Positions 1-58,128 of a stretch of 64,000 bases of DNA are shown piece after piece (position 1 is the stretch's first letter; each line of letters opens with the position of its first letter). The DNA lies in the NCBI GenBank assembly GCA_000091205.1, contig AP006498.2; one strand, 5' to 3'. Below the pieces are notes generated by a model, which did not search any database, was not told the origin of the DNA, and saw only the letters and a list, made by a program, of their open reading frames with translations. Both the position numbers and the translations under genes were made by a program. The DNA comes from Cyanidioschyzon merolae. Its lineage: Eukaryota.

Positions 1-1330
1 ACAGCCGCCAACAGGGCAATGCGACTCGTTGTTGTTGTTGGATGCTCAGTGCAGAGCAGAGCGACCAACCCGCTGACACTCGGACTTGAACTCCAAATAC
101 CCTCAATAGAAGCGATAGCAGCAGGCTGCCGGGCACGCATACGGGCCAAAAGGGTCCACCAAGCGCACCCGGTTCAGTCGGATTTTCATGCAGACCCCAA
201 CGCACCGCAAGAACACTTGGATGAAATCGACGCAGATTGGGCTGAAGCGCCTCTTAGACGAAAGCACGCTCCCTAATCGTTCCCCAGAAATGTAGCAGGC
301 TCCCGTCGCCTCAAGCGAACCGTCCAAACAACAATATGGGAACGTAGACACGGAACAAGTCGTGCCAGTAACGCCGGCTTGACTCTCTACCGGAACTACA
401 ACCTAGCATACACATGCAAGTACTGGTGGGAGGCGCTGGAGTTCCCGGGACTTGCTCGAGGTACCCAGTGGCTCGCGAAAATCCACGTTGGTGGCTTCTG
501 GCGACCATCACCGGCTCTAAGCCGTATAGGAACACTGGAATCGCACTGTCCCTGCTATCGAGACGAGACCCCTCGAGACGCTGACATATTTAGGCTTACA
601 GTGCCCGCGCTGGAAGCAGGAGCGCAGCGAGCTCCTTGGCGGACAGCAGCAGCTGGACATCACCGTGATAGCAAAAGGCCGGACACTCACTTTGAGTGCA
701 GCACTGGCAACTGATGGTCCGCTAACGGAGCCTCAGCGCTCATTAGTGGCGAACAAACTCACATGCTACCTTCTAGGCGGAAGGTCCAGCGAATCGGATG
801 CGCACACGGGCCCAGTGCGCTTTCTGCGCCTACCCACTGTGGTGAGCGTCAAGCACAAACCCACATTGCCAACCGACAACAACGCATTCCATGCATGATC
901 ACGAAGGAGAGAGGCGGCTCCCAGGATATATCCTAACAGTCAAGTTTCTCCAGCGTGTCGTGCAGCGAAGACAAGCCTGCATCCCCAGACTGTACGAGCA
1001 CAAACTGACGACGAGACCCGATTCTACGTCGGGTGAACCACACCTCGAGCCGATGCCCTCTGGGGTATAGAAAAGCAGTTCTAGCTCGATGAACTATCTG
1101 CTCCAGCATTTAAGGTGCAAAGGCGGATACGGAACGGCAGGTACGAGGCACACCCGATAGGACTTATGAAACGACCAGAATATCCGAGAAGAAGTATAGG
1201 TAATGGAACTTGGAAGTAGGCTGTTTGATGGATAATTCACCGCACATTGGAAAACACAAAAAAGTAAGAAAAGAAAAATGCGCATAGTCGGAGAACGCTG
1301 GCCAAAGGAAACGTTTTGTTAATGAAAAAA

Positions 1331-3832
1331 ATGCCGCCGTTGAAGGAAAACGTGATCTTGATATCTAGCATGTAGCTCTAATGTAAAAGTTGTATTTTCG
1401 TTAACTTCATAGCCAAGTATAGTTTTCAGTTCATTTGAGTTTCAAACCTCAAACATGTGTATTCAATTGTTTTGTCGCAGTATATAACAGAAGCGTTCCA
1501 GGAGCTTTCTTTTTCAAAAAAAAAACTAAAAAAGGAAAGTTATGAAAAAGCAAGTCGACGATCCTGGAGGCCGAGGGTCGCCGGCTGCCAGAAAAAAAAC
1601 AAAAAACAGTGCCAAGTCCAGAAGAAAAGGAAAAGAAGAAGGACCAAAGGGGGAAGGGGGGAGACTCTACGTCGAAGGATGCAAGAAAGACGAATGTACG
1701 ACGAGATGGTGGTGAAAACCTTTCTTCATGGCCATATCAAGGATCCCTACAGGGAAAAGTTGCAAGACGCTATCAGAAACCGTGTCGACTCGTACTCCAA
1801 GAGTATTGTCAAGGCGTCGTCAGGACTGATGCATTTGGTACGGGAGATGTATCGCGACGTGACGCACATGGAAACGGTGGAGATTCCGGACGAGTTTTTC
1901 GATAAGAAGTTTATTCGTCAGCTGATGCTTGGTACAGAGGAAGCGCGGAGGGAAAATGTATGAGTGCATGCCCTCCACGAAAAACATCCCTTTTACAGCT
2001 TCAACGGTACTCGATACAAGGGTGACCGGGATATTTACAGCTATGGGGCGATGAAGTACCTCACGAATCTGAAGAATCCTTTGACAGTGAACCTCGAACG
2101 TTTCATGATACGCGCCGTGTTTGCACTCGATCCCGGGCATCTCTCCCAAAGGGATATGGGCGATTACCAATGGCATCACGAACAATCGCCGGCGTGTAGA
2201 TGGGATCGAATTTGTCGACAAGAAGGCGTCAAAAGAGATCACGAATGAAGCTTCTGTTATCCGTGCGGCTATACAAGTGCACCGTGCAGTTTTGGGGCTG
2301 GCGAATCCGACAGACAAGATATCAGAGTTGAAAAAAGATAAGGAAAGATACGATCGTCTCGTCCTACGGTATTTTGTGTTTTTGGACCGAGAGCTCGATC
2401 GCAAAGCGGAGATGAAGCTGAGCGAGGAAAAAAATGAAGAATGGGAGAGACGGAAGGCGTTCCTAATGGGCGAGCGCTTCAACGTGGTTCCGTTGGGCAA
2501 CATCAAGTCACATTTTGTGACTATCGACTCCGGCGTCCTTTACGGCATCATGACTGAGACCAGTCCCGAGTTCGATGTAAGGAGCACAGAGATCACCGCC
2601 GAAACCCGCGAGACGTACTGGAAGAATATCTTCAATTTCAAAGGGCTCAAAGTCAGCAAGAAAAAGGAATTCACTGGGTTGATCGAAAGCGATGGAGTAG
2701 CCATGTGTGTACACTATCTGCGGTTGTTGAAAGATCGTCCAGTTCTGCCCTCGGCTTCGCGCTCGGCGAAACATGAAGAAAACAAACAAGCGGATCCTGC
2801 GACGCAGAAAGTGCAGGAAAACGACTTTGTCGTTGGCGCGGACCCCGGAAACACAAATATCATATCCATCGCTGTATCCAAGCTTGCGGACGATGGTTCT
2901 GACGGTAACTTGCGTCAGAAACACATGCGTCTTCTGAGGTTCTCGAGCGCAAGAGACTAAAGAGAATCCGGAATAATGAATGTGCGGAAGAAAATTGAGA
3001 CATGGAATGCAGGAATAAAGGACCACTTGGAAGCTATGAGCGAGGTGACGAGCCGAGGAGCGGGCTTTCAAGCTTTTCTGAAATTCATGAAAGTTCGCGT
3101 TGCTCATTGGGAGGCGCTGTGGGAGGAGTATACAAAGCCTCGGTGGGCTCGTCTGCGTATGAATCTATACTGTGGGAAGCAGCGGGCGTTCGCGAACTTT
3201 TTCAATCAGTTGAGCGCCCTGAAGGTGGATGTGAGTCAGAGGCTCGTCGTAGCATACGGAGCAGGGCGCTGGAAGACCCAAAAAGGGTGTACACCAGCTC
3301 CAACGACGAGAGCGCACAAGGAGTGTGCACGGCGTTTCGTAACGATACCTGTAGATGAGTTTCGAACATCGTATACACACCACGAGCTGGATTGTACACT
3401 TCAGAGGGTCGAGATGGAAAAGTGCCAGAGGAGCCCTGAAGATATAATAAAGTATGGACCGCTGACGGAGGAGCAAATGGAAAGGAGGGCAAAAGTTCGG
3501 CGACTACTTGCATTAGTAAGTACAACCAATCATGGCAAGAAACGTATGGAATTCGTGAATCGTGACTTTGATGCCGCCATCAATATCAGGAAATGTGCGG
3601 TACTGGAGACGAGAGCTCCAGAGTGGACAAGAGAGAACTTTAATGGACAACCTCTCAAAGTCGAACTATATAAGAAAAAATTGAAACTAGTAGTAGGTGG
3701 ACGTTCCAAACAAACTAGGAGGCGTCTGCACGTCAGTTGGAGACGATTTGTCTAAGGCGCGTTTGCCGCCACTACGGTACACTGCTGGCAGCAACGTTTT
3801 TCATTTGAAAAACGTTTGGCGGCGAGCTGCTC
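1331..3832 (+). mobile_element. Fanzor/TnpB-like (OMEGA-family RuvC nuclease) transposable element, copy A. Boundaries are approximate. The LE is set where homology to copies B-D begins (atgccgccgttgaagg, ~1331). The RE is set where the diverged 3' tail stops matching the other copies (~3832).
   Basis: About 2.5 kb is shared, at an estimated >85-90% nucleotide identity by eye (not computed), with three other segments in the window (17050-19504, 22425-24935, 49575-52062). It encodes a protein with TnpB/Fanzor hallmarks (see the pseudogene entry). Confidence 0.7.
1541..3755 (+). pseudogene. Fanzor-like RNA-guided endonuclease gene, copy A, disrupted. There is a probable frameshift in the A/T homopolymer-rich 5' part (~1560-1620), an in-frame TGA at 1961-1963 where other copies have CGA (Arg), and a TAA at 2958-2960 where copies B and D have TAT (Tyr). 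A putative 52-nt intron lies at 2100-2151.
   Basis: The protein fragments follow in order: MKKQVDDPGG..., then a basic NLS-like run QKKRKRRRTKGG, then MQERRMYDEMVVKTFLHGHIKDPYREKL... A RuvC-I-like motif ([18 protein letters not shown]) lies in ORF 2121..2960. An H/C zinc-binding cluster (YTHHELDCTLQRVEMEKCQ) and a RuvC-III motif (EFVNRDFDAAINIRKCAVLE) lie in ORF 2976..3755; D..NAA.NI is the TnpB/Cas12/Fanzor signature. The assembled length of ~690 aa fits Fanzor1-size proteins. Confidence 0.65.
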
Positions 3833-3870
3833 ATTTCCCACGGGCAGACACCTAAAGCGGGTCATCTGGT

Positions 3871-13568: not shown

Positions 13569-15627
13569 TGCACGAGGACATTGTGCCGTGGGGTGATACC
13601 TGGGGGAAACCGCGGGGCGACCCAAAAAATGGGCAGGTATAGACTCGCAATTCATACTGAGTGCACAGGGTCCAGAACCGCGCGAACAAGTGTGTCTCGG
13701 GGAAGCACGCTCGGTAGATGTACAGCGCCAAGCCATTCCACAGTTTTTGCCGAATAATCAGGAAGTTTCTCTGAATGTTTGCGTAGGTCGGCAGCCTTCA
13801 TGCGAGGTTGTGACTATCGCCGCTATGGAACGTGGACGTAAAGGCGGGATGCAGCACAACACAATGCTTATTCTCTGTATCGACACCGGTTTCGGACCAA
13901 AATGGAATGCTAGCAGCTCGCTCGGCTCCTTTTCTTTGATTTTCTCGAACTCGATTTCAGGTGTACAACCCCGGTAATCCAAGTACAGCAATAGAGACCT
14001 ATGTTTTCGAATTTAGAACTAGGATTCTCGGTCTTGTTTTCAGAGTGGCTCTTTCGATGCCTTGGGGCTGGAATTCGTCTCGCCATTAGCATCAATATCG
14101 TGCGCGACGCTTCCGACAGAGTGTTCGTCGCGGAACCGATACCATCATGCGATTCATATGTACGAGCTTGCACTCTTGTCAGTTCCGTAGGTGCGGCACG
14201 CTAAAATCATGCATTCGTCTGGTTCTCGATCGTTCTATTTCATGGCAACTCGTGGGCGCAGCAACCTCCGCGCCTGGATTGACGAGGAATCAAGTCGGCA
14301 TCGTCCTGTGACGACTGCTTCATCAGCTCATCCCAAGGTCCCATTGAAATTGTCACGTCAAAGAAGCGCTTCTTGCGGAGAGTGTACCACTGCTTTGCTC
14401 GAAGGTTGCGTAGTGGTATCGGATTCCATCGGCTCGGGCTCCAGCCATGGTTCTCCTGCCAGTACCTGTTTCATCACGGAAAACATCACGTTCCACGATC
14501 CCTTATCGATTGGAACTGTGCGCTTGCAGCAGACAGCGTACTCGCCCACAGGATCGTGCAGAAGAAGCACGATATCCCAGGGTACGGCAATGTGCGGAGA
14601 AAAGCAGGGCATTGACGGGAGTTTTCTGTGCGCATCGAGCGCATGCACAGAGCGATGGAGCGCGTCCTCTCGTGCTACAGGGCGGTGCCCGAGATGCAGT
14701 GGACAACATGGCAACTCCTGACAACAGCCAAGCGGTACCGCCGCGAAGGACGCACCGAGTCTGTGTACGAAGAAGATGAAAACGTCAAGAAAAATGTTGA
14801 TCAAAAATGTCCTCTGAGCACACAGTGCGTCAATATTGCCAAGATAATGTTTCGGGACCATAGGCTGTATAGATATTCAGCCACACACGGGCGCCCCTCA
14901 GTCTTTTTCGACCGGCCTCCTGCTATCGGTTTCATTTTCTCCCTGCACATTTCGAGTCTGAGAGGTTGTCCAACTAAGCTAGATCACTCGGCTCAGCTCC
15001 TGGGGTCTCGTCTTCTGCACCACACATCCTTTGATATTGATGGTGGCGTTGAAGTCTCGGTACGCGAGCCCCATGCGTTTCCTGCCTCTGGTTGAACTCA
15101 TCAACGCAGGGATTCCCCGAACGCGTGCACTCTTTGTCACTACAGTCTCGTCATCGCCTCGTCGGGCAAACACTTGCTCTCGCTTCTCTCATCTCTTCTT
15201 CTTCGTTCGATGGTCGACGAGCAGAGGGTTTTTCTGATTTTTGTCGAGCCCGGCGAAACCGGGCGATCCAGCATCCCCAGCTGCCATTTCCATACCTTTT
15301 CCTTGGGTTTTTTATTTCTTTGAATCAACGCACTTGGAGCACATCTGCTATAAACCGCGAGAAAGCATTTGATGAGACACTCCCGGGCGTGGAACACACC
15401 TGAGGGAAAAACTGAACGCATCGTACGGGGCTCTCATGAGTCATGGAGGCCGCATCGGATCGCGTCGCACGAGAGGCTAGGGCAGGGCGCATGTCCGCTT
15501 CTACCCATTAGATCCATAAATATACACCATGGTATAGTTTGGTCCAGGGGCAATCTTCTGCCACACCGGGTCTCCGCGCACGTCCGCTTCAGATTCATCG
15601 GTTTCCGCTGAGCGTTCCTGTCCCGCA

Positions 15628-17046
15628 ATGACACAGGAGTCGGTGGTCGAAGCGGAAGCCCGGCTCGAGGCCGGACTCGCCGTTTCCGACAAGGTAATGA
15701 ACTTCTCTCTCGGAAAGGCGACAGCTGTACCGTCGTCAAAACACGTCCATACGGCTGCGGTCTCCGCACAGACTGTCGTCGACGACGACGACGAGGACGC
15801 CGACGACGTCACTGCTACGTCCACGTCTGAAAAGGGACCAAAGAAGCCTCATAAAAGACGAGGAAAACGAGGTGGACGGCGAAAAGGTGCCAGTGAGAAC
15901 GGCGGAGGCGACAGCACTGTTGCTTCGTCGCCAGTACCACAGCCGCTTCCGAAGGCGACTTGTAGCACAGAACTCTGTGGCATCTCGCGGCTCTTTCCTG
16001 AGGGCGTCTACCCGGCTGGCGAGGTTCAGGACTATGTCGGAGACCAAGCTTATCGTACAACTCAAGCCGAAGTACGTGAACGGGAACGACTCTCGTTCGA
16101 TATGATTGGAAAAGCGCGAAAAGCAGCTGAGGTCCACCGGCGCGTGCGCACGTACATCCGGCCTCGAATTCAGCCCGGGATACGACTGGTTGATCTTTGT
16201 GAAGAGCTGGAAAACGCTACCCGGACACTCGTTGAGGAAGATGGCTTGGAAGCGGGTATAGCGTTTCCAACAGGTTGCTCGTTGAACCACGTGGCAGCGC
16301 ATTACACCCCGAACCGGGGCGACGACACCCGACTCCAGCACACAGACGTGATGAAACTGGACTTTGGCGTGCATGTGGACGGAATCATTATGGACTGTGC
16401 CTTTACCATTGCGTTTGACGAGCGCTACGAAAAGCTACTAGAAGCTGTGCGTGAAGCGACCAATGCGGGTATTCGAGCAGCAGGGATCGATGTGCGACTC
16501 AGCGAGATGGGTTCCATCATTCAAGAGGTCATGGAGAGCCACGAGATCGAGCTGGACGGCAAAGTGATGCCCATCCGCTCGATCCGTAACCTAAACGGAC
16601 ACAGTATTGACCGGTACCGCATCCACGCGGGTAAGACGGTGCCCATTGTGAAGAGCAGTGTGCCGGGGAAAATGGAGGAAGGCGAATTGTATGCCATTGA
16701 GACGTTTGGTTCTACTGGGCGCGCATACGTCACCGAGAGCGGAGAATGCTCCCATTACATGAAAGTATTCGATGCGTCGCACGTGCCGCTGAGGATGCCG
16801 CGTGCACGCCAGTTATTGAGTACGATCAACCGCCATTTTGGAACGCTGGCTTTCTGTCGTCGCTATCTGGATCGACTCGGTGAGGAGCGATACCTCATGG
16901 CACTGAAGCACTTGTGTGATGTGGGTATCGTGCAGCCGTATCCGCCATTGTGCGATGTGCCGGGTTCTTTGACAGCACAGTTCGAGCACACGATTCTGCT
17001 GCGGCCGACTGGTAAGGAAGTGCTAACTCGCGGCGACGACTTTTGA
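15628..17046 (+). CDS. methionine aminopeptidase 2 (MetAP2, peptidase M24A)
   Basis: An acidic and then Lys/Arg-rich N-terminal extension (DDDDEDADD...[16 protein letters not shown]) is typical of MetAP2. The pita-bread core motifs are [38 protein letters not shown] and ...[10 protein letters not shown]. It is a single 472-aa ORF from ATG to TGA. Confidence 0.85.
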
Positions 17047-17049
17047 TGC

Positions 17050-19504
17050 TGGCACCGAACACCGTTCGCAGTCGGACGATGCCGACCGTGTACAGTAGTG
17101 GCGGCAACCGCGCCCTAGACGAAACGTCTCTAACTGACGTGCAGACGCCGCCCTGCCGTTTTCGACCGGCCACCTACTACTGCTTCCACCTTCTTCTCAT
17201 ATAGTTCGACTTTGAGAGGTTGTCCAACAAAGTTTTCTCTTGTCTAGTCTGGAGGTCTCGTCTCCAGCACCGCACATCTCCTGATATTGATGGCGGCATT
17301 AAAGTCTCGGTTCACAAATTCCATACGTTTCTTTCCATCATTGTTCGTACTTACTAATGCGAGTAGTCCACGAACTTTCGCCATCCTTTCCATTTGCTCT
17401 TCCGTCAGCGGTCCATACTTTATTATATCTTCAGGGCTCCTCTGGCACTTGTCCATCTCCACTCTCTGAAGTGTACACCCCAGTTCATGGTGTGCATAGG
17501 ACGATCGGAACTCGTCTACAGGTATCGTAACGAAACGTCTTGCGCACTCCTTGTATACCCTCGTCGTTGGAGCTGGAGTAGTGCCTTTCTTGGGCGCCCA
17601 ACGCCCTGCCCCATACGCTACTACGAGCCTCTGACTTTCATCCTCCTTCAGGGCGCTCAACTGATTGAAAAAGTTCGCGAACGCCCGCTGCTTCCCGCAA
17701 TACAAATTCATTCGCAAACGAGCCCACCGGGGCTTGCTGTACTCTTCCCACAGCGCATCCCAATGGGCGATGCGAACTTCCATGAATGTCCGAAAAGCTC
17801 CAAAGTCCGCTCCTCGGCTAGTCACCTCGCTCAAAGCTTCTAGGTGCTCCTTCATTCCTGAATTCCAAGTCTCGATTTTCTTCCTCGCATTCCTCATTCC
17901 CGATTCTCGATAGTATCTCGCTCTGGAGAACCTCAAAGGACGCATGTCTTTCTGACGCAAGTTACCATCAATGCCATCTTCCGCAAGCTTGGATACAGCG
18001 ATGGATATGATATTTGTGTTTCCGGGGTCCGCACGAACGACAAAGTCGTTATCCTGCACTTCCTGTGTGGCAGGATCCGCCTTCTTCCCATCTTCATGCT
18101 TCGTCGAGGACGGAACTGGACGATCTGTCTTCAAGCGCCTTTAGTGTACACACATGGGTATTCCATCGGTTTCGTCTGAAAGTGAGCAACTTTTGCTTGC
18201 TCACTTTCAGACGTTTGTAATCGAAGATATTCTTCCATTACGTCTGGCGGGTTTCGCCGGAGAACTCTTCCCTGCGAAGATCGAACGCCGGACTGATCTC
18301 AGTCATGATGCCGTAAAGGACGCCGGAGTCGATAGTCACAAAATGTGACTTGATGTTGCCCAACGGAACCACGTTGAAGCGCTTGCCCATTAGGAACGCC
18401 TTCCGTCTCTCCCATTCCTCATTTTTTCCTCACTCAGCTTCATCTCCGCTTTGCGTTCGAGCTCTCGGTCCAAAAACACAAAATACCGTAGGACGAGACG
18501 ATCGTATCTTCCCTTATTTTTTTCAAATCTGATATCTTGTCTGTCGGATTCGCCAGCCCCAAAACTGCACGGTGCACTTGTATAGCCGCACGGATTACAG
18601 AAGCTTCATTCGTGATCTCTTTTGACGCCTTCTTGTCGACGAATTCGATCCCATCTACACGCCGGCGATTGTTCGTGATGCCATTGATAATCGCCCATAT
18701 CCCTTTGGGAGAGATGCCCGGGATAGAGCGCAAATACGGCTCTTATTATGAAACCTTCGAGGTTCACTGTCAAAGGATTCTTCAGATTCGTGAGGTACTT
18801 CATCGCCCCGTAGCTGTAAATATCCCGGTCACCCTTGTATCGAGTACCGCTGAAGCTGTAAAAGGGATGTTTTTCGTGGAGGGCATCCACTAGCACATTT
18901 TCCCTCCGCGCTTCCGCTGTGCCAAGCATCAGGTGTCGAATAAAGGTCTTGCCGAAAAACTCGTCCGGAATCTCCACCGTTTGCATGTGCGTCACGTCGC
19001 GATACATCTCCCGTACCAAATGCATCAGTCCTGACGACGCCTTGACAATACTCTTGGAGTACGAGTCGACGCGGTTTCTGATAGCGTCTCGCAACTTTTC
19101 CCTGTAGGGATCCTTGATATGGCCAAGAAGAAAGGTTTTCACAACCATCTCGTCGTACATTCGTCTTTCTTGCCGCCTTCGACGTAGAGCCTCCACCTTT
19201 CAGTCCTTCTTCTCTTCCTTTTCTTCTGGACTCGGCACAGTTTTTTGTTTTTTTTCTGGCAGCCGGCGACACTGGGCCTCCGGGATCGTCGACTTTTTTT
19301 ATAGCTTTCCTTTTTTTTTGGAAAAGAACACTCTTTGGACGCGTCTGTTCGATACTGCGAAAAAAAACTCGACTAGACTTGTTTGAGGGTTGAAACAAAA
19401 ACGAACTGAAAGACTATACTTGCCTATGAAGTTCACGAAAATACAACTTTTACACGAGAGCTAGACGCTAAGGATCACGATTACGTTTCCCTTCAACGGT
19501 GGCA
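17050..19504 (-). mobile_element. Fanzor/TnpB-like element, copy B, the most degenerate copy. Its RE tail abuts the MetAP2 stop codon, tail-to-tail. Homology to copies C and D continues ~30 bp beyond 19504.
   Basis: Nucleotide homology to copy A runs throughout. There is a ~130-bp internal deletion plus frameshifts between 18134 and 18440, relative to copies A, C and D. Confidence 0.65.
17244..19196 (-). pseudogene. Fanzor-like endonuclease gene, copy B, fragmented. N-terminal part is 18606..19196, the middle is frameshifted, and the C-terminal RuvC-I to RuvC-III part is 17244..18134.
   Basis: ORF 17244..18134 reads ...[19 protein letters not shown]...RMEFVNRDFNAAINIRRCAVLETRPPD. ORF 18606..19196 reads ...RRMYDEMVVKTFLLGHIKDPYREKL...GAMKYLTNLKNPLTVNLEG. 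Confidence 0.6.
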
Positions 19505-20032
19505 TACGCGTCGTGTCTCATGACTGCCCGATCCCCCAGATGCGCTCATCGAGCGCGATGCATGCGCTGCGCGAGACGCCTCACCGATCCATGAAGGACA
19601 CGTGTCCGACACCCCGTCTTGGCACATGCGTGTTCGCATCGCACTGCAGCCAAAATAACGTATCGTAGATCGGAAACGCACGTAGAATGAACTCTTGCTA
19701 TAGGTTCTGTCGCTGGCGCCGACGCTACTGCCCATCGCAGTACCGCCCTGACATACAAGGGGATGCAGGGGCCTGGCACGATACCCCTCGACGCTTCTAT
19801 CAAAAGCGTAGCGTTCTCTGCGGCTTACCGTTGTGTGGTTAAGGTATGCATCACTCTTCTCAATAGGATTTTCGTTAGTTTTATTGATCATAAACAAACA
19901 AGGTACGGTAGGATTCCTGAACACGGATACAGGTTTATTTCCTCTGCTTGTTATGTATGCTGCACGGTCGCTGGAACAGTGTCCGATTGTATGGGTGCTG
20001 CGTATCGAGGCTTGTCGCGCGCTCCAAGCACG

Positions 20033-22414: not shown

Positions 22415-22424
22415 GACACTCTGG

Positions 22425-24935
22425 AAACCTCGTTCGCCACGGTAGCACCGCCACAGCCGTTCTAAGTCGGACGACGCCGACGGTATCCCGTAGTGGCGGC
22501 AAACGCGCCTTAGACAAATCGTCTCCAACTGACGTGCAGACGCGTCCCCGTCTTTTTCGACCGGCCACCCACTACTGCTTCTAACTTTTTCTTATATAGT
22601 TCGACTTTGAGAGGTTGTCCAACAAAGTTCTCTCTTGTCCACTCTGGAGGTCTCGTCTCCAGCACTGCACATCTCCTGATATTGATGGCGGCATCAAAGT
22701 CACGATTCACGAATTCCATACGTTTCTTGCCATCACTGGGTGTACTTACTAATGCAAGTAGTCCACGAACTTTTGCCCTCCTTTCCATTTGCTCCTCCGT
22801 AAGCGGTCCATACTTTATTATATCTTCAGGGCTCCTCTGGCACTTTTCCATCTCCACTCTCTGAAGTGTACAACCCAGCTCGTGGTGTGTATACGATGTT
22901 CGAAACTCATCTACAGGTATCGTAACGAAACGCCGTGCACACTCCTTGTGCGCTCTCGTCGTTGGAGCTGGTGTACACCCTTTTTGGGTCTTCCAGCGCC
23001 CTGCTCCGTATGCTACGACGAGCCTCTGACTTTCATCCTCCTTCAGGGCGTTCAACTGATTGAAAAAGTTCGCGAACGCCCGCTGTTTCCCACAGTATAG
23101 ATTCATACGCAGACGAGCCCACCGAGGCTTTGTATACTCCTCCCACAGCGCCTCCCAATGAGCAACGCGAACTTTCATGAATTTCAGAAAAGCTTGAAAG
23201 CCCGCTCCTCGGCTCGTCACCTCGCTCATAGCTTCCAAGTGGTCCTTTATTCCTGCATTCCATGTCTCAATTTTCTTCCGCACATTCATTATTCCGGATT
23301 CTCTTTAGTCTCTTGCGCTCGAGAACCTCAGAAGACGCATGTGTTTCTGACGCAAGTTACCGTCAGTACCATCGTCCGCAAGCTTGGATACAGCGATGGA
23401 TATGATATTTGTGTTTCCGGGGTCCGCGCGAACGACAAAGTCGTTTTCCTGCATTTTCTGCGTCGCAGGATCCGCTTGTTTGTTTCCTTCATGTTTCGCC
23501 GAGCGCGAAGCCGAGGGCGGAACTGGACGATCTTTCAACAACCGCAGATAGTGTACACACATGGCTACTCCATCGCTTTCGATCAACCCAGTGAATTCGT
23601 TTTTCTTGCTGACTTTGAGCCCTTTGAAATTGAAGATATTCTTCCAGTACGTCTCGCGGGTTTCGGCGGTGATCTCTGTGCTCCTTACATCGAACTCGGG
23701 ACTGGTCTCAGTCATGATGCCGTAAAGGACGCCGGAGTCGATAGTCACAAAATGTGACTTGATGTTGCCCAACGGAACCACGTTGAAGCGCTCGCCCATT
23801 AGGAACGCCTTCCGTCTCTCCCATTCTTCATTTTTTTCCTCACTCAGCTTCATCTCCGCTTTGCGATCGAGCTCTCGGTCCAAAAACACAAAATACCGTA
23901 GGACGAGACGATCGTATCTTTCCTTATCTTTTTTCAACTCTGATATCTTTTCTGTCGGATTCGCCAGCCCCGAAACTGCACGGTGCTCTTGCATAGCCGC
24001 ACGGATTACAGAAGCTGCATTCGTGATCTCTTTTGACGCCTTCTTGTCGACAAATTCGATCCCATCTACACGCCGGCGATTGTTCGTGATGCCGTTGGTA
24101 ATCGCCCATATCCCTTTGGGAGAGATGCCCGGGATAGAGTGCAAATGCGGCGCGTATCATGAAACGTTCGAGGTTCGTTGTCAAACGATTCTCCAGATTC
24201 GTGAGTCACTTCATCGCCCCATAGTCGTAAATATCCCGGTCATCCCTGTACTGGGTACCCTCGAAGCGGAATTCCGCGAAGTTTTCGTGGAGGGCATGCA
24301 CCCGCTCATTTTCCATCCGCGCTTCCTCTGTACCAAGCATCAGCTGACGAATAAACTTCTTATCGAAAAACTCGTCCGGAATCTCCACCGTTTGCATGTG
24401 CGTCACGTCGCGATACATCTCCCGTACCAAATGCATCAGTCCTGACGACGCCTTGACAATACTCTTGGAGTACGAGTCGACGCGGTTTCTGATAGCGTCT
24501 CGCAACTTTTCCCTGTAGGGATCCTTGATATGGCCATGAAGAAAGGTTTTCACCACCATCTCGTCGTACATTCGTCTTTCTTGCATCCTTCGACGTAGAG
24601 TCTCCCCCCCTTCCCCTTTGGTCCTTCTTCTTTTCCTTTTCTTCTGGACTTGGCACTGTTTTTTGTTTTTTCTGGCAGCCGGCGACACTGGGCCTCCAGG
24701 ATCGTGGACTTGCTTTTTCATCACTTTCCTTTTTTTGTTTGTTTTTGAAAAACAACGCTCTTTGATCCCTTCTGTTATACACAGCAAAAAATCAATCGAG
24801 CATTTTTGCTTGAGGTTTGAAACACAAATGAACTGAAAACTGTACTTTGCTACGACCTCAACGCAAACACAACTTTTACAGCTGAACAAGACGCTTCTGA
24901 TCGCGATTGCGTCTCCCTTCAACGGCGACGGGCGC
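22425..24935 (-). mobile_element. Fanzor/TnpB-like element, copy C. The RE tail ends ~10 bp upstream of the M13 peptidase ATG. It is most similar to copy A at the RE and to copy D overall.
   Basis: Nucleotide homology to copies A, B and D. The tail sequence cgtagtggcggcaaacgcgccttagac is the reverse complement of copy A's gtctaaggcgcgtttgccgccactacg. Confidence 0.7.
22510..24922 (-). pseudogene. Fanzor-like endonuclease gene, copy C. An in-frame TGA follows ...YDYGAMK and is shared with copy D. A TAA between the ...FSSARD and [11 protein letters not shown] parts is shared with copy A.
   Basis: The ORFs are 24206..24922 (N-terminus with the MKKQVHDPGG...KKRKRRRTKG NLS-like region), 23305..24144 (RuvC-I region) and 22510..23289 (Zn cluster plus RuvC-III VNRDFDAAINIRRCAVL). 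Confidence 0.6.
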
Positions 24936-25640
24936 TTCGTGTCTAATGCCTGCCAGACAAGGATGTGCGCGTATCGGGCGCACTCTATAGAACAAAGAAC
25001 AGATACTGACCATTAAATCGCCACGAGATAACGATTTCTTTCCCCTCTGCGATAAACGTTGAGACGGGGAAAACTGTCGGTACTTTCGAAAGTTTACCTT
25101 CTAGACGCAAGGTCCCGCGGATTGCACGAGTCTCCCAGGCTCGTGCTTCACGCTCCGCCACTGGCAGGTGCTTTCGTGACATCTGAGCAACTCGTCCGTA
25201 ACGCACTCCACTCTGGGACTTGGAACGGGTAGCCGGCGTCTGGGCGTTGCCCATGATGCAGTGGGCTCCTGGTATATCGCGTTGCGCTGCCGCAGGCACT
25301 AGCTCAGTCTGCGCAGCTTGCAGACTCCTAGAACGACTATGAGCCACGACTCCGTTTCAGGTGAAGCGTTCCTCGGTCCGACGCCCTCGGAGGTATGGCA
25401 AAGCCGTTCAGTCTCCGTGATGCATCGGCATCAGCGATATAACCGCAATTGCGGGTGCTCAAAGCAGGTAATCGGCGCTCGATAGAGCATAAGAATCGAC
25501 CATTACATCCGAAATGATTTATGGGTCATCTAACTTGAGGGTAAGTGCATCATGATGGATGCTTTCCCGAAACCCAACATCCATCCATCCATCCATTCTG
25601 CAATCTGGGATCCATGGTCCACGAAAACGTTTTGTCACTG
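24936..25640. repeat. ~700-bp segment flanking the LE side of Fanzor copy C. It is duplicated almost identically next to copy D (52063-52765) but absent next to copy A. It contains a 120-aa minus-strand ORF (24985..25347) and a (CATC)n run.
   Basis: Direct comparison of 24936-25640 with 52063-52765 shows colinear near-identity ending at ...ccatggtccacgaaaacgttttgt. The ORF MAHSRSRSLQAAQ...GKEIVISWRFNGQYLFFVL is conserved in both; no recognisable domain. Confidence 0.45.
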
Positions 25641-27087: not shown

Positions 27088-28616
27088 GAGCGTAGGACCT
27101 GCATGACTCCCGCACGCGCAAGGACTCGGCTTTCTACACGACGTTGCGGCGTTGAAGCGTGACGAACGTTCGTTAGGAACGCGTGCCCCCTGGTGCAGCG
27201 ACTTTTGCTTGATTGTACTTCGGGAAACTTGGTCGCTTCGAAACCAGTTGGCGTTGCCGCTTCCTCCTTACCGAGTGTCAAGCTTTGCATCGTATGTCAG
27301 TGTTGTCGACGAAAGGTTCATGCACCACGTACACATCATGCCGAACCTTACTCCTTAAAGAACAATAGGAAACTGCCGATGCGCGATGTCCATGCAACGG
27401 TTGCCGCTACGCCAGTCCCAGCGAGATGGCCACGCTTTCGCACTAGTTCTTGTGAATTGCATGACAATAAAGGCTTTGCGCACGGCATTTTCTGGAATGT
27501 CGCGCAGGCTGCAATACCTGGGCAATGAAGACGCCCAGCGCGATTCGCGTGCTGCACTCACGCCAGTCGCCTGTGTCCGTAGAAAGCTGTCGATGGGACG
27601 CGCTTTCGCAGTCGGTGGAGGGATACCCGAGTCAGCTCCGTGGAGCCATATCCTTTTCAAGGCATATCCCTCGTGCTTCTCTTTGTCAAGTTTCCACCGG
27701 TCCTGTTCGCAGTTCCGTCGAGCGTCCTCGCGTAGAGCGTCGAGGAAAACGTGCACTCTCCGCGAAATGCTTTTCGAGAAACCCAACGCTCACTGAACCT
27801 GCTGAACGAATCATACGAATATGTATGGAAAGCGTGTGACGGTGAGTCTGCGTGGCCCTAGACCCAGGGCAGTCAGTCATCGTATCCAGGTGTTTTCTGT
27901 GCTGTGGAGACAATGAATTGAACCAGGGAAATCCCGGATGCCTGATATGCGTACCATCACTAGAGCAAAAAACATTCTATGACGATAAAGCGTTTGTATA
28001 CACACAGACCTCCAGATGTTTCCCGGCCTTTTTTTGACCGAACCCTCTGATATCCGTTTGGGGTTTTCCCTGCAGACTTCGAGCTTGGGAAGCCACCCAG
28101 CGAATTTAGAGGGTGTCAGGTCCTCAGTCCTCGTCTTTAGCACCACAGATCGTGTGATATTGACTGCACCGTGAAAGTCTGGGGTTCACGAACTCTATGA
28201 GTCTATTGCATCTAAATGAACTCACGTTTGCAGGGATTCCCCTATCTTTTGCACTCTATGACACTAGAGTCTCGTCATTGCCACGTTTGGCAAACATCTG
28301 TTCTCGTCGCTCGTCGGTCTCCCGTTTCCCACTTCTTCTTCTGCTTCGTCAATAGCGCTATATCCCTCTGTTCTCGACGAGACGAGGATTTTTATCGTTT
28401 CTTTTTCAAGCACCCGGCAATGGTAGTCATCCAAGATGTCTGACTTGCATGTCTATACCTTTCCCTTTGATTTTTTATTTCTTCAAATGAATGCACTTTG
28501 AATACATCGGCTATGAGCCGTGGAAAAGCATATGGTGACATGCATCTGGCGTGGAACGCAATTGAGTTGAAATACGATAATCACCCGTGCGTGCATGCAG
28601 CGCAGATACGAAAAAG

Positions 28617-34813: not shown

Positions 34814-35896
34814 CTTTGCCTCGAGCGCCAACACGCGACCTCGCATTATGCATGTCAACCTGCACTACAAGCGTCTGCTTCAGTTCAAGCCGAGCAAATC
34901 CGGAAACCACCCGGTTACCGCGTCTATGTTCTTGCGGACTGCCCGAGAGCACGCGCGGCTCGCACACGACCTATGAAGCGTGCACCGTGACGTCGCCGTT
35001 GTCGCAGACCCCAAACATCCCTACTTTCCGAGTCTGAACGCTTTGCACCGCTGCTTCTTTCTTCAACCCCAGCGTGCATTCCAAGGACACGTGTTCTCCT
35101 GCGATTCCGCACTGGCATGCACGTCGATGGCGACACGCATCGCAGGCTGCGGCATTGCATGCATCCTGCCACGTGTCCGATCTGCTGTCTCCGATGCGTG
35201 CAAGCTTTCACTTGTGTGCTATCGTGCGAATTTGAAGCGCGCATTGGTGCTTGATATAGTGCAACACATCCAAATTTGGGCACCGTGCCGTGGAAGCCTT
35301 TTTGGTTTTTTGAAGGGCTAAAGATTCGATGTAGGATCGTGTGTACACCAACCGTGATGCCTCGATTCCGCGATGGGTATCTGCGTTCGGGAAGGCATCC
35401 GAGGCTCCACGCCTTGCCACCGAGTTCCGGGACCCATGTCTGCCCTCGGAGATATTGGTCATTTCGCTGGTTCCATCCGGTGCGGAGTCTATCGTGAGCG
35501 CCCCCTGGGACGCTGCCAGCGTCGGTACCGATAGAATGTCCAGAGGGAACGGCTTCGTTATGTCGCTGAGGACGTCCGCCAGAGGCGCCGCTCATCCGAC
35601 GAGGATACGGTCTCGTCGTCCGTTCGTGCTGCAACAGTAGGCGTATGCAAGCCTGCCTTCGTCATACTGAAGAAAATCAGGTGCTAGAACGAATCCTGCG
35701 GACCGAGTTTCCGCTTCGTAATTGTATGCGGCATGCGTCGCTGTTTGGCGATGCAGGCCTTGGCTCGGCATGCACTAGTGCAGAGGATCACGAAGCGCAT
35801 GACCTGCATGCTCGTCCGGTTCACGGGGCCTACCGCTTAGAAGGTAAAATGCCCCGAGTGGGCCGTCTCATGATTTTGGAATACGACCGAATGCGC

Positions 35897-48975: not shown

Positions 48976-49629
48976 TCAGTGGTACGCTTCTCTTGAGCTG
49001 ACGCTCCCTGCACCCACGTTTGGTGCCTCGAAGGCGGCATTCGGCGTCTCGGCGCTGGCCTCATGTTTCTGTTCGTTCATGATACCGAGCACCGTGCCCA
49101 TGGTCGCAACGCTCTGCTGCAGCGCGTTCAAAGTCGCTCGAAGTTCGGCGAGTTGCTCTTGCTGCTCGAGCCGTTGGCTGCTGATGGACTCCAGTTCGGC
49201 ACGTCGCTCGCAGATCTCCAACTCCAACTCGGAACAATTTGGTAGTCGCTCGATCTCGACACACAAAGCCCGCAGCTCTCGCTCGCTAGCTAACTGCGAC
49301 TCAGCAACGCTGAGCGCCTTCTTTTCCTCCGCGTATTGTTCCCGAAGTTGCTTCACTTGCGCCTCCAGTGTAGGCAGTGCTAGGCAACGAAGGTTGTCCT
49401 CGTCAGTGGCGAGCGCCTGCGCGGCTCTGGCGAAATGCTCGGCCGACTGCTCGAGCGCAGCCAGCGATCGAGCCAAAGCGTCCGGGGAGGTTTCCACTCC
49501 GCGTCCTGCTTGCGTGAGTACCAGCACTTGACCTGCTGACTGTAGGAACTCGTCGTAGCGCTGTTCAAGTCGTGCAGCGATTGCTGTTTCACAGTCACCG
49601 CTGTCGCTAACGGTGTACATTAGTGGCAT
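48976..49629 (-). CDS. Small coiled-coil protein (~217 aa from ATG 49627-49629). Its first ~20 codons lie inside the diverged 3' tail of Fanzor copy D, so the true start is uncertain. Low confidence.
   Basis: Heptad-rich sequence (LEAQVKQLREQYAEEKKALSVAESQLASERELRALCVEIERL). The N-terminal codons MPLMYTVSDSGDCETAIAA are nucleotide-homologous to the tails of copies B and C. Confidence 0.3.
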   Translation of the reverse strand: MPLMYTVSDSGDCETAIAARLEQRYDEFLQSAGQVLVLTQAGRGVETSPDALARSLAALEQSAEHFARAAQALATDEDNLRCLALPTLEAQVKQLREQYAEEKKALSVAESQLASERELRALCVEIERLPNCSELELEICERRAELESISSQRLEQQEQLAELRATLNALQQSVATMGTVLGIMNEQKHEASAETPNAAFEAPNVGAGSVSSREAYH

Positions 49630-52062
49630 GTGGCCCGCCCTAGACGAGAGGTCTCCAACTGACGTGCAGACGCGTCCCCGTCTTTTTCGACCGGCCACCC
49701 ACTACTGCTTCTAACTTTTTCTTATATAGTTCGACTTTAAGAGGTTGTCAAACAAAGTTCTCTCTTGTCAACTCTGGAGCTCTCGTCTCCAGCACCGCAC
49801 ATCTCCTGATATTGATGGCGGCATCGAAGTCACGATTCACGAATTCCATACGTTTCTTGCCATCGTTGGTTGTACTGACCAATGCGAGTAGTCCACGAAC
49901 TTTCGCCATCCTTTCCATTTGCTCCTCCGTAAGCGGTCCATACTTTATTATATCTTCAGGGCTCCTCTGGCACTTTTCCATCTCCACTCTCTGAAGTGTA
50001 CAACCCAGCTCGTGGTGTGTATACGATGTTCGAAACTCATCTACAGGTATCGTAACGAAACGCCGTGCACACTCCTTGTGCGCTCTCGTCGTTGGAGCTG
50101 GTGTACACCCTTTTTGGGTCTTCCAGCGCCCTGCTCCGTATGCTACGACGAGCCTCTGACTTTCATCCTCCTTCAGGGCGTTCAACTGATTGAAAAAGTT
50201 CGCGAACGCCCGCTGTTTCCCACAGTATAGATTCATACGCAGACGAGCCCACCGAGGCTTTGTATACTCCTCCCACAGCGCCTCCCAATGAGCAACGCGA
50301 ACTTTCATGAATTTCAGAAAAGCTTGAAAGTCCGCTCCTCGGCTCGTCACCTCGCTCATAGCTTCCAAGTGGTCCTTTATTCCTGCATTCCATGTCTTAA
50401 TTTTCTTCCTCGCATTCATGATTCCCGATTCTCGATAGTCTCTTGCTGTCGAGAACCTCAGAAGACGCATGTGTTTCTGACGCAAGTTACCGTCAGTACC
50501 GTCGTCCGCAAGCTTGGATACAGCGATGGATATGATATTTGTGTTTCCGGGGTCCGCGCCAACGACAAAGTCGTTTTCCTGCACTTTCTGCGTCGCAGCA
50601 TCCGCTTGTTTGTTTTCTTCATGTTTCGCCGAGCGCGAAGCCGAGGGCGGAACTGGACGATCTTTCCTCAACCGCAGATAGTGTACACACATGGGTATTC
50701 CATCGCTTTCAATCAACCCAGTGAATTCCTTTTTCTTGCTGACTTTGAGCCCTTTGAAATTGAAGATATTCTTCCAGTACGTCTCGCGGGTTTCGGCGGT
50801 GATCTCTGTGCTCCTTACATCGAACTCGGGACTGGTCTCAGTCATGATGCCGTAAAGGACGCCGGAGTCGATAGTCACAAAATGTGACTTGATGTTGCCC
50901 AACGGAACCACGTTGAAGCGCTCGCCCATTAGGAACGCCTTCCGTCTCTCCCATTCTTCATTTTTTTCCTCACTCAGCTTCATCTCCGCTTTGCGATCGA
51001 GCTCTCGGTCCAAAAACACAAAATACCGTAGGACGAGACGATCGTATCTTTCCTTATCTTTTTTCAACTCTGATATCTTGTCTGTCGGATTCGCCAGCCC
51101 CGAAACTGCACGGTGCTCTTGCATAACCGCACGGATTACAGAAGCTGCATTCGTGATCTCTTTTGACGCCTTCTTGTCGACGAATCCGATCCCATCTACA
51201 CGCCGGCGATTGTTCGTGATGCCATTGATAATCGCCCATATCCCTTTGGGAGAGATGCCCGGGATAGAGTGCAAATGCGGCGCGTATCATGAAACGTTCG
51301 AGGTTCGTTGTCAAACGATTCTCCAGATTCGTGAGTCACTTCATCGCCCCATAGTCGTAAATATCCCGGTCATCCCTGTACTGGGTACCCTCGAAGCGGA
51401 ATTCCGCGAAGTTTTCGTGGAGGGCATGCACCCGCTCATTTTCCATCCGCGCATCCTTTGTACCAAGCATCAGCTGACGAATAAACTTCTTATCGAAAAA
51501 CTCGTCCGGAATCTCGACCGTTTCCATGTGCGTCACGTCGCGATACATCTCCCGTACCAAATGCATCAGTCCTGACGACGCCTTTACAATACTCTTGGAG
51601 TACGAGTCGACACGGTTTCTGATAGCGTCTCGCAACTTTTCCCTGTAGGGATCCTTGATATGCTTAAGGACACCGGCTTTCACCACCATCTCGTCGTACA
51701 TTCGTCTTTCTTGCATCGTTCGACGTAGAGCCTCCCCCCCCCCTTTGGTCCTTCTTCTTTTCCTTTTCTTCTGGACTCGTCACTGTTTTTTGTTTTTTCT
51801 GGCAGCCGGCGACACTGGGCCTCCAGGATCGTGGACTTGCTTTTTCATCACTTTCCTTTTCTTGTTTGTTTTTGAAAAACAACGCTCTTTGATCCCTTCT
51901 GTTATACACAGCAAAAAATCAATCGAGCATTTTTCCTTGAGGTTTGAAACACAAATGAACTGAAAACTGTACTTTGCTACGACCTCAACGCAAACACAAC
52001 TTTTACAGCTGAACAAGACGCTTCTGATCGCGATTGCGTCTCCCTTCAACGGCGACGGGCGC
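49575..52062 (-). mobile_element. Fanzor/TnpB-like element, copy D, the least damaged copy. The flanking ~700-bp segment 52063-52765 is shared with copy C.
   Basis: Near-identity to copy C across the ORFs. The RE tail overlaps the putative start of the coiled-coil ORF. Confidence 0.7.
49748..51274 (-). CDS. Fanzor-like endonuclease, copy D: an uninterrupted 508-aa reading frame from the post-intron region through RuvC-I, the Zn cluster and RuvC-III. The upstream N-terminal exon (51336..51716) ends in an in-frame TGA after ...YDYGAMK. The full gene therefore has one nonsense codon unless it is read through.
   Basis: The frame reads ...[18 protein letters not shown]...FSTARDYRESGIMNARKKIKTWNAG... 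(Tyr where copies A and C have a stop) ...YTHHELGCTLQRVEMEKCQ...RMEFVNRDFDAAINIRRCAVLETRAPE. Confidence 0.6.
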   Translation of the reverse strand: MHSIPGISPKGIWAIINGITNNRRRVDGIGFVDKKASKEITNAASVIRAVMQEHRAVSGLANPTDKISELKKDKERYDRLVLRYFVFLDRELDRKAEMKLSEEKNEEWERRKAFLMGERFNVVPLGNIKSHFVTIDSGVLYGIMTETSPEFDVRSTEITAETRETYWKNIFNFKGLKVSKKKEFTGLIESDGIPMCVHYLRLRKDRPVPPSASRSAKHEENKQADAATQKVQENDFVVGADPGNTNIISIAVSKLADDGTDGNLRQKHMRLLRFSTARDYRESGIMNARKKIKTWNAGIKDHLEAMSEVTSRGADFQAFLKFMKVRVAHWEALWEEYTKPRWARLRMNLYCGKQRAFANFFNQLNALKEDESQRLVVAYGAGRWKTQKGCTPAPTTRAHKECARRFVTIPVDEFRTSYTHHELGCTLQRVEMEKCQRSPEDIIKYGPLTEEQMERMAKVRGLLALVSTTNDGKKRMEFVNRDFDAAINIRRCAVLETRAPELTRENFV

Positions 52063-52765
52063 GTCGTGTCTAATGCCTGCCAGATAAGGATGTGCGCGTA
52101 TCGGGCGCACTCTATAGAACAAAGAACAGATACTGACCATTAAATCGCCACGAGATAACGATTTCTTTCCCCTCTACGATAAACGTTGAGACGGGGAAAA
52201 CTGTCGGTACTTTCGAAAGTTTACCTTCTAGACGCAAGGTCCCGCGGATTGCACGAGTCTCCCAGGCTCGTGCTTCACGCTCCGCCACTGGCAGGTGCTT
52301 TCGTGACATCTGAGCAACTCGTCCGTAACGCACTCCACTCTGGGACTTGGAACGGGTAGCCGCCGTCTGGGCGTTGCCCATGATGCAGTGGACTCCTGGT
52401 ATATCGCGTTGCGCTGCCGCAGGCACTAGATCAATCTGCGCAGCTTGCAGACTCCTAGAACGACTATGAGCCACGACTCCGTTTCAGGTGAAGCGTTCCT
52501 CGGTCCGACGCCCTCAGAGGTATGGCAAAGCCGTTCAGTCTCCGTGATGCATCGGCATCAGCGATAGAACCGCAATTGCGGGTGCTCAAAGCAGGTAATC
52601 GGCGCTCGATAGAGCATAAGAATCGACCATTACATCCGAAAAGGTTTATGGGTCATGTAGCTTGAGGGTAAGTGCATCATGATGGATGCTTTCCCGAAAC
52701 CCAACATCCATCCATCCATCCATCCATTCTGCAATCTAGGATCCATGGTCCACGTAAACGTTTTG
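52063..52765. repeat. Second copy of the ~700-bp LE-side flanking repeat (see 24936-25640). It contains the ORF 52112..52474 (-) and a (CATC)n run.
   Basis: Colinear near-identity with 24936-25640. Confidence 0.45.
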
Positions 52766-53050
52766 TATAAAAAATTCTCATCAGCAGCAGCGACGGCGCT
52801 AGGCCCCAGCCGTCATCCTGGCGCCCGCTGAAGGCTCGCTGCGAAGCCTCGGCTGCATCGCAAGCCCAGGTGTCGTTCCGTTGTCAACCGAAAACACTTG
52901 TAGATCGAGTTGGTGCTGAACAACGTGGGCTCTGTGACTCCTCCCTAAACTCTTGCTCGCTTCTGATTGGGAAAAGGTTTGCAGCCTCAAACAGTGTGTG
53001 GAGAACACTAGAACTTAACCAACACCACACCGCCCACGACACAGTTACCC

Positions 53051-57661: not shown

Positions 57662-58128
57662 GAGCGGGCGTATGCGAACCCTGAACCTACGGAAGCGAGT
57701 TGCTCTCAGAGCGGGCGTGTGCGAACCCTGAACCTACGGAGGCGAGTTGCTCTCAGAGCGGGCGTGTGCGAACCCTGAACCTACGGAGGCGAGTTGCTCT
57801 CAGAGCGGGCGTATGCGAACCCTGAACCTACGGAAGCGAGTTGCTCTCAGAGCGGGCGTATGCGAACCCTGAACCTACGGAGGCGAGTTGCTCTCAGAGC
57901 GGGCGTGTGCGAACCCTGAACCTACGGAGGCGAGTTGCTCTCAGAGCGGGCGTGTGCGAACCCTGAACCTACGGAGGCGAGTTGCTCTCAGAGCGGGCGT
58001 ATGCGAACCCTGAACCTACGGAAGCGAGTTGCTCTCAGAGCGGGCGTATGCGAACCCTGAACCTACGGAGGCGAGTTGCTCTCAGAGCGGGCGTATGCGA
58101 ACCCTGAACTTACGGAAGCGAGTTGCTC
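57662..58128. repeat. 47-bp minisatellite of ~10 tandem units with A/G polymorphic positions. It lies in the intergenic region upstream of the lipase-like gene.
   Basis: The unit gagcgggcgt(a/g)tgcgaaccctgaacctacgga(a/g)gcgagttgctctca repeats with exact 47-nt periodicity. For example, ctgaacctac starts at 57681, 57728 and 57775. Confidence 0.85.

Follow-up and report, generated by a model that had tools for sequence, protein, structure and literature searches.

Fanzor1 proteins, whose biochemistry has been established since 2023 (PMC10432273), are represented in Cyanidioschyzon merolae, a red alga, by one family, CMe-1A, described by Bao & Jurka in 2013 (Mobile DNA 4:12; PMC3627910). According to that description, CMe-1A has ~150 copies of ~3 kb with ~80% identity to the consensus, some of them intact; it has no terminal inverted repeats (TIRs), its target-site duplications (TSDs) were undetermined, and it was called unclassified. 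The 635 bp at its 5' end are 95% identical to a separate element, TE-N2_CMe, present in ~70 copies (PMC3627910). Here we analyzed a 64,000-nucleotide window (the whole stretch under study, from contig AP006498.2), in which a first-pass annotation, based on the letters alone, had noted four dispersed segments with a Fanzor/TnpB-like coding region. This reading by motifs correctly recognized a eukaryotic TnpB-like nuclease transposon. Comparison with the published family indicates that the four segments, here named copies A to D, are almost certainly pseudogenized copies of CMe-1A, a Fanzor1-carrying transposable element family of C. merolae. The family itself was thus already described in this genome in 2013, and what our analysis adds to that description is a structured 3' terminus and modular 5' ends.

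The four colinear homologous segments were recovered by self-BLAST and a repeat finder at the places where they had been annotated, with pairwise identities of 86-97% (Table 1). We took the CMe-1A consensus (3169 bp of DNA and a protein of 734 aa) from the supplement of Bao & Jurka, and its comparison with the window by BLASTN gave matches of 85-87% identity over 2.47-3.17 kb for all four copies. At the protein level, the longest open reading frame (ORF), which lies in copy D, aligns gap-free over 504 aa with residues 195-698 of the CMe-1 protein, at 84% identity. The choice between Fanzor1 and Fanzor2, left open by the first-pass annotation, is now made in favor of Fanzor1, family CMe-1A. The annotated places of the copies were right and their extents too short: copies C and D share an additional ~700 bp on their 5' side and measure ~3.16 kb against the published consensus, and the conserved 3' terminus reaches ~30-40 nt beyond the earlier ends, approximately to the limits listed for A, B, and C. 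All the motif strings quoted earlier are present in the sequence, and RuvC-I (ADPGNTNI), VDEFR(T/S)S, VVAYGAGRW, and NRDF(D/N)AAINI occur once each in 4/4 copies. Because additional decayed fragments, 70-91% identical to the consensus, are also present, we count six or more insertions of the CMe-1A family in the window.

Table 1. Features of the CMe-1A copies and relics in the window (strand + as presented; consensus alignments by BLASTN)
Feature	Window positions	Strand	CMe-1A consensus positions (window positions; identity)	Remarks
Copy A	1335..3822	+	703-3165 (1335-3810; 86.8%)	self-comparison extent 1331-3782; ends from consensus BLASTN and 3' conservation
Copy B	17055..19557	-	648-3137 (19557-17088; 85.4%)	self-comparison extent 17052-19532; most decayed copy
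Copy C	22453..25637	-	4-3145 (25637-22475; 85.3%)	self-comparison extent 22445-24954; full-length CMe-1A; ~25006-25637 is the 5' TE-N2-like part
Copy D	49576..52766	-	6-3151 (52766-49599; 85.1%)	self-comparison extent 49590-52085; full-length CMe-1A; carries the longest ORF
Fifth-copy relic	14846..15372	-	832-970 and 2850-3079 (15372-15228 and 15122-14892; 73-75%)	old, internally deleted; protein residues 642-736 at 40-49%
Small relic fragment	28130..28256	-	2840-2968 (28256-28130; 70%)	
TE-N2-like scrap	35783..35848	+	471-536 (35783-35848; 77%)	further decayed, CMe-1A/TE-N2-like
TE-N2-like scrap	767..798	-	503-534 (798-767; 91%)	further decayed, CMe-1A/TE-N2-like
Reversed TE-N2-like module	1006..1331	-	84-282 (1220-1017; 77%)	abuts the 5' end of copy A
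1-nt insertion site, copy A	2126-2143	+		
1-nt insertion site, copy B	18711-18728	-		
1-nt insertion site, copy C	24122-24139	-		
1-nt insertion site, copy D	51252-51269	-		
Longest ORF, copy D	49748-51274	-		508 codons
RuvC-I Asp codon D241 (GADPGNTNI), copy D	50552..50554	-		aligned with SpuFz1 D383
RuvC-I motif, copy A	2838-2861	+		
RuvC-I motif, copy B	18009-18032	-		
RuvC-I motif, copy C	23404-23427	-		
Canonical RuvC-II position, Gly G380 (VVAYGAG), copy D	50135-50137	-		
Rearranged RuvC-II Glu codon E413 (VDEFRTS), copy D	50036..50038	-		aligned with SpuFz1 E541
RuvC-III Asp codon D482 (NRDFDAAINI), copy D	49829..49831	-		aligned with SpuFz1 D606
R1 motif, copy A	3748..3816	+		
R1 motif, copy B	17058..17122	-		65.9 bits
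R1 motif, copy C	22453..22517	-		47.6 bits; terminal hairpin partly degraded
R1 motif, copy D	49576..49647	-		36.9 bits; strongly diverged

None of the copies (0/4) retains an intact reading frame. A 1-nt insertion, CTCTA[T]CCCGGGCATC, is common to all four and shifts the frame, so that the protein sequence ...FALYPG and its continuation ISPKGIWAI... fall into two frames; of 48 related sequences covering this stretch, most are without the extra base, as is the published consensus. The ORF of copy A carries two frameshifts and two stops, that of copy C the shared frameshift and two stops, and copy B has ~10 stops in its best frame. Some of these stops recur between copies: C and D both have K*L upstream of the shift, and A and C both have ARD*RES. 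Copy D ends prematurely at ...RENFV*. The ORF of copy D starts at TTG, following a bacterial start rule, and covers the whole RuvC half with all the catalytic residues before this early end, while its first ATG would cost ~240 N-terminal residues of the 734-aa protein. Because of the shared frameshift and the stop codons in every copy, all four copies are pseudogenes and cannot make a full-length nuclease. As no copy has an intact frame, the encoded protein of ~690 aa in the first-pass annotation turned out to be a conceptual reconstruction only, stitched together from broken frames; no copy encodes it, and the family consensus has 734 aa.

Searches for homologues of the ORF returned 143-282 close relatives, every one of metagenomic origin (hot springs and other sources), among them intact proteins of ~700 aa at ~41% identity with an MPPK... 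start and K/R-rich N-termini. Two further word-indexed homologue searches gave mostly close relatives and no named proteins. In an exhaustive profile search of 1.84 billion representatives, the family reached 2778 relatives at E<=1e-3, typically of 600-700 aa. A shallow profile of 14 sequences gave no match. We then used a family alignment of 45 members, with the window ORF as its first row, as a profile against 177,635 distinct Protein Data Bank (PDB) sequences, and obtained three matches, all of them to Fanzor1: Parasitella parasitica Fz1 (4e-23), SpuFz1 (7.9e-17), and Guillardia theta Fz1 (1.7e-9). No TnpB, Cas12f, or Fanzor2 chain was matched by this profile even at E<=10. These results bear out the earlier interpretation of the element as encoding a TnpB/Fanzor-type RuvC nuclease. 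The Pfam family PF07282 (Cas12f1-like TNB, formerly OrfB_Zn_ribbon) was matched by 18 of the 45 relatives, with a best E value of 3.5e-6, and by no part of the window ORF. The N-terminal basic stretch, which had been proposed to resemble a nuclear localization signal (NLS), is indeed present as KKRKRRRTKG in copies A and C, in line with the K/R-rich N-termini of the intact relatives.

The alignment also places the active site. Residues D241, G380, E413, R481, A486, and N488 are invariant across the 45 members, and D482 (90% or more), N484, A485, and I489 are nearly so. The metal-coordinating residues of SpuFz1 are D383 (VIDPN), E541 (LDEYKTS), and D606 (WNRD) (PMC10432273), and in the profile alignment to chain 8gkh_P (numbering offset 394 from the maltose-binding protein tag) they coincide with D241, E413, and D482, respectively. 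The motif D..NAA.NI had been read as RuvC-III, and it does align with the RuvC-III of SpuFz1. The canonical RuvC-II position is occupied by a glycine, and the catalytic glutamate follows 33 residues further downstream, as in the rearranged catalytic site described for Fanzors by Jiang et al., which has Gly or Pro at the canonical place and an alternative Glu after it (PMC10530073). The three D/E/D codons were found in all four copies. For the fold, a first AlphaFold model built on 18 sequences (mean predicted local distance difference test score, pLDDT, 46.5) was discarded; the second (AF2) model, which we used, has a mean pLDDT of 66.6, with 75-92 in the RuvC half. Its seven best Foldseek matches in the PDB are all Fanzor1 (3e-11 to 4e-6, probability 1.00), with SpuFz1 as the best (3e-11) and the Parasitella and Guillardia proteins included, followed by Cas12o, Cas12i, and Cas12f. 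Structures of Fanzor2 have been published (PMC11832414), and none is among the Foldseek matches listed.

Two observations on the relatives concern regions outside the catalytic residues. Many of the homologues carry the precomputed Pfam annotation PF26935.1, presumably a newer model for Fanzor or TnpB-like proteins. Three metagenome relatives (P0001, P0007, and P0011) have 2-5 tandem units of ~25 aa, acidic and basic in composition (...KHEE.KEA...TQ.VQDNDLVVDA...), just before RuvC-I, where the window copies have a single unit.

The 5' ends of the elements are modular. A conserved segment of ~60 nt precedes the start of the copies as noted earlier, and upstream of it we found three alternative modules, each in several independent loci. 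Copies C and D carry a forward TE-N2-like module. Copy B has a module of ~400 nt, reaching ~19976, that is common to five independent metagenome loci. Copy A is abutted by a reversed, partial TE-N2-like module and is without the standard 5' part and the ~60-nt segment. The TE-N2-like module of ~640 nt, matching the published 5' part in C and D, also stands alone in related loci. We observed such solo modules in both orientations (L050 4736-5342, L051 6975-7581, L061 6404-6980, and L052 1692-2305), several of them directly beside Fanzor cores. A 120-codon ORF (MAHSRSRSLQAAQ...) lies in the TE-N2-like part of C (24985-25347, - strand) and D (52112-52474, - strand); it may be spurious, and the protein collection has no entry of exactly this sequence. 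The copies are also mosaic in their identities: in the copy alignment, A is nearest to B in a block of ~200 bp at columns ~1100-1300 (0.92-0.93, vs 0.77-0.89 to C), and nearly identical to C over columns ~1500-2500. One frameshift across three different 5' modules, together with this mosaic identity, suggests the spread or amplification of a defective lineage and/or ectopic gene conversion between neighboring copies.

Neither TIRs nor a recognizable TSD was found at any of the four copies, and the elements contain no transposase-like second ORF. A lead towards Replitrons (HUH) was dropped because none has been detected in red algae.

At the 3' end, we compared 80 related loci from hot-spring metagenomes, some of them orthologous to B and D at 97-99%. 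Conservation in these loci runs ~30 nt beyond the earlier ends, as far as ...CACCGCCGGCGTCGTTCGACTTTCGAACGGCGTT, and is at background level past that point. We found the terminal segment in two variants, CGTCGTTCGA-CTT-TCGAACGGCG and AACGTTTTTCA-TT-TGAAAAACGTT, and both fold into a hairpin of 10-11 bp when sequences are folded one by one; copy A has the second variant, with an 11-bp hairpin at 3797-3820. Just past the stop codon there is a small GGCG-loop-CGCC hairpin whose loop varies. We built a covariance model, R1, of the 66-nt 3' terminus from 12 seeds, and it gave 89 matches in 581 kb, exactly four of them in the window, one at the 3' end of each copy (Table 1). In the structural alignment, 83% of cells were paired, vs 36-60% with slid partners, and 12 of 18 pairs showed changes on both sides, vs 6.1+/-1.4 in shuffles (0/500). 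RNAalifold, run on MAFFT alignments, did not recover the terminal hairpin, owing to the shift in register between its two variants. The 66-nt 3' terminus is, on these comparisons, a candidate for either the end of an omega-RNA scaffold or a right-end transposition signal.

Copy D is peculiar at this end. Its last ~60 nt (49576-49660) are strongly unlike those of C (22453-22530), despite 97% identity over the other 3.13 kb, and metagenome locus L004, orthologous to D, has the same diverged end. In the second variant of the 3' hairpin (AACGTTTTTC...GAAA.ACGTT), one arm is similar to the outer terminus of the TE-N2-like module (TTTTTTC..ATGACAAAACGTTT).

Among described systems, the CMe-1A consensus is the closest, being alike in genome, family, DNA (85-87%), protein (84%), TE-N2-like 5' part, absence of TIRs, and in the 5' terminus CGATGACAAAACG... 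and 3' terminus ...TTTTCTTTTGAAAGGCG. The window copies differ from it as a frameshifted, stop-containing sublineage in which A and B have other 5' modules, and in related elements the conserved terminus runs two bases (TT) further. SpuFz1 (PDB 8GKH; Saito et al. 2023, PMC10432273) shares the positions of the catalytic triad and the single-ORF organization, and its RNA scaffold lies at the 3' end and overlaps the sequence that codes for the C-terminus, an arrangement that would be expected for CMe-1A as well. However, the window ORF has only ~15% identity to SpuFz1 in structural alignment, and inverted repeats of 30 nt and a CATA target-adjacent motif (TAM) are present in SpuFz1 elements, whereas CMe-1A is without TIRs. 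The Parasitella parasitica (PDB 9CF0) and Guillardia theta (PDB 9CER) proteins, first and third in the profile search (Xu et al. 2024, PMC11423790), come from a fungus and a cryptophyte; their sequences are distant, and their omega-RNAs are not comparable by sequence. ISDra2 TnpB, with the IS200/IS605 OMEGA systems, and Cas12f are alike in the class of RuvC fold, in D..NAA.NI, in the logic of a right-end guide RNA predicted for CMe-1A, and in hairpin-bearing ends without TIRs or TSDs. CMe-1A differs from these systems in having no TnpA partner, a rearranged Glu, and a protein ~330 aa longer, and its family gives no sequence-profile match to TnpB or Cas12f and weak fold-level matches to Cas12 only. 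Membership in Fanzor2 was rejected, with no Fanzor2 chain in the profile matches or in the Foldseek matches listed, and membership in prokaryotic TnpB was rejected on the absence of TnpA, the Gly at the canonical RuvC-II position, and a consensus of 734 aa vs ~400 aa.

Several results weigh against the interpretation of the copies as Fanzor1 elements with a structured RNA-coding end. Single-sequence searches of the ORFs against Pfam and the PDB gave no match, and the family profile was needed to make the link. The fold search gives low TM-scores (0.35-0.40), and the prediction is poor in the model's N-terminal half. The zinc ligands of SpuFz1, CPRC...CTNPNC, are aligned and replaced in the CMe-1A family by THHELGC...LLALVSTT; with these cysteines missing, the Zn-binding H/C cluster claimed in the first-pass annotation is not supported as a conserved feature. 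The alignment used for covariation was fitted to the structure of R1 itself and is biased towards that structure, so we take covariation as supportive rather than conclusive. Rfam has no match in the window. The 5' hairpin in the ~60-nt segment (GCGCTC-GAT-GAGCGC and variants) was no better than shuffles (median z -0.5). The 5' flanks yielded neither a TAM nor a target motif, since variable repeat modules adjoin the 5' boundary, and an empty site could not be defined either. The first-pass annotation had named three outcomes that would speak against it, namely no significant profile match to TnpB/Fanzor RuvC domains, a failure of D..NAA.NI to align with RuvC-III, and an origin of the segments from a duplicated host gene. 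None of these was observed: the first two are answered by the Fanzor1 matches and the position of D482 described above, and the third by the match to the published transposon consensus and by the boundaries of the copies.

A segmental duplication of an ordinary host gene would account for four copies within 51 kb and for the 97% identity between C and D over 3.13 kb, but the flanks of all the copies are unrelated to one another, and the homology between C and D begins within a few bases of the published 5' terminus of the transposon. Moreover, hot-spring metagenome contigs contain 479 related stretches in a wide variety of contexts, and ~150 copies are reported in the C. merolae genome (PMC3627910), so that we give this explanation hardly any credence. 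Just as little speaks for a prokaryotic TnpB insertion sequence of the IS200/IS605/IS607 type, or for bacterial contamination: D..NAA.NI is also found in TnpB, and some relatives have weak Pfam TNB matches, yet the profile is matched by Fanzor1 only, the protein has 734 aa and a basic N-terminal tail with no adjacent TnpA, and the elements are flanked by exact C. merolae nuclear genes. MetAP2 (15628-17046) is an exact match to XP_005537896.1 and a 680-aa coiled-coil protein (3871-5913) to XP_005537894.1, and because these two neighboring ORFs match RefSeq proteins of C. merolae 10D exactly, we name that strain as the host; on these matches, the window is nuclear DNA of C. merolae 10D. The eukaryotic context and the exclusion of a bacterial insertion sequence, both asserted beforehand, are thereby upheld.

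It is also conceivable that at least one copy is a live gene making an active Fanzor1, for example by +1 ribosomal frameshifting at TATCCCGGGC or from an internal start in D. An identical insertion in all four copies would be expected of a programmed frameshift site, and the 508-codon frame of D keeps the RuvC half with every catalytic residue. However, every copy has in-frame stops elsewhere, the frame continues uninterrupted, with no extra base, in most relatives and in the published consensus, and the D frame depends on its TTG start. The shared insertion site does not, to our knowledge, correspond to any described +1 shift motif. The additional stop codons lead us to reject programmed frameshifting and to consider a live gene very improbable. 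The alternative that deserves more attention concerns the 3' hairpin, which may be a DNA-level transposition signal, instead of or besides a part of an omega-RNA: a right-end hairpin recognized as single-stranded DNA by a trans-acting transposase, HUH-type or other, as in IS200/IS605, Helitrons, and Replitrons. The lack of TIRs and of a transposase in the element, the position of the hairpin at its very end, and the compensatory variants fit such a signal. Against it, red algae are not known to have an HUH transposase, and Replitrons were not detected there, the 5' hairpin is not significant, and the right end of TnpB/Fanzor elements doubles as omega-RNA scaffold (PMC10432273). We regard such a DNA signal as less likely than not, though worth keeping in view, and since the right end doubles as scaffold in TnpB/Fanzor systems, the two roles are not exclusive.

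Taking the copies as decayed CMe-1A elements, an intact member of the family would make one protein of ~734 aa, with a basic NLS-like N-terminal tail, REC/WED regions, and a TnpB-type RuvC domain. By homology with Fanzors (PMC10432273, PMC10530073, PMC11423790), we infer RNA guidance and nuclease activity for this CMe-1 protein, which would act in the nucleus as a RuvC endonuclease guided by an omega-RNA. The omega-RNA scaffold would come from the element's 3' end and overlap the region coding for the C-terminus, the guide would be read-through flank, and matching DNA would be cut beside a short motif. Such cutting would favor retention or spread of the element; Meers et al. reportedly found in 2023 that cleavage of the empty donor site by TnpB promotes transposon retention. 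The covarying 3' hairpin motif and the three interchangeable 5' modules lead us to a pair of more specific readings, which together we consider rather improbable: either a hairpin- or guide-directed mobilization or homing repeatedly brings the Fanzor core to lie beside TE-N2 ends, or the 66-nt terminus is the scaffold end of an undescribed thermoacidophile Fanzor1 omega-RNA. Either, if true, would supply mechanistic detail missing from the 2013 description. C. merolae grows at ~42-45 C and low pH, and an intact family member could therefore serve as a compact editor that tolerates heat. For the guide RNA of such a member, the 3' motif marks a place to search; the four window copies themselves are dead and add nothing directly to this prospect.

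The elements sit close to their neighbors. G+C content is ~0.49-0.52 in the repeat region, vs 0.54-0.60 around it, and the intergenic spacers that hold the elements are very short (3822-3871; 17046-17055). Copy A and XP_005537894.1 lie on the same strand, with the 3' end of the copy ~49 nt upstream of the gene's annotated start, and the end of copy B is ~9 nt from the stop codon of MetAP2, in convergent orientation. Two ORFs called with the bacterial code begin inside copies and read out of their 3' ends, one at 20033-22528 (an M13-peptidase-like protein) starting in copy C and one at 48976-49698 starting in copy D. Finally, a tandem array at 57662-58128 consists of 9.9 copies of a 47-nt unit (GAGCGGGCGTATGCGAACCCTGAACCTACGGAGGCGAGTTGCTCTCA) with 97% matches.

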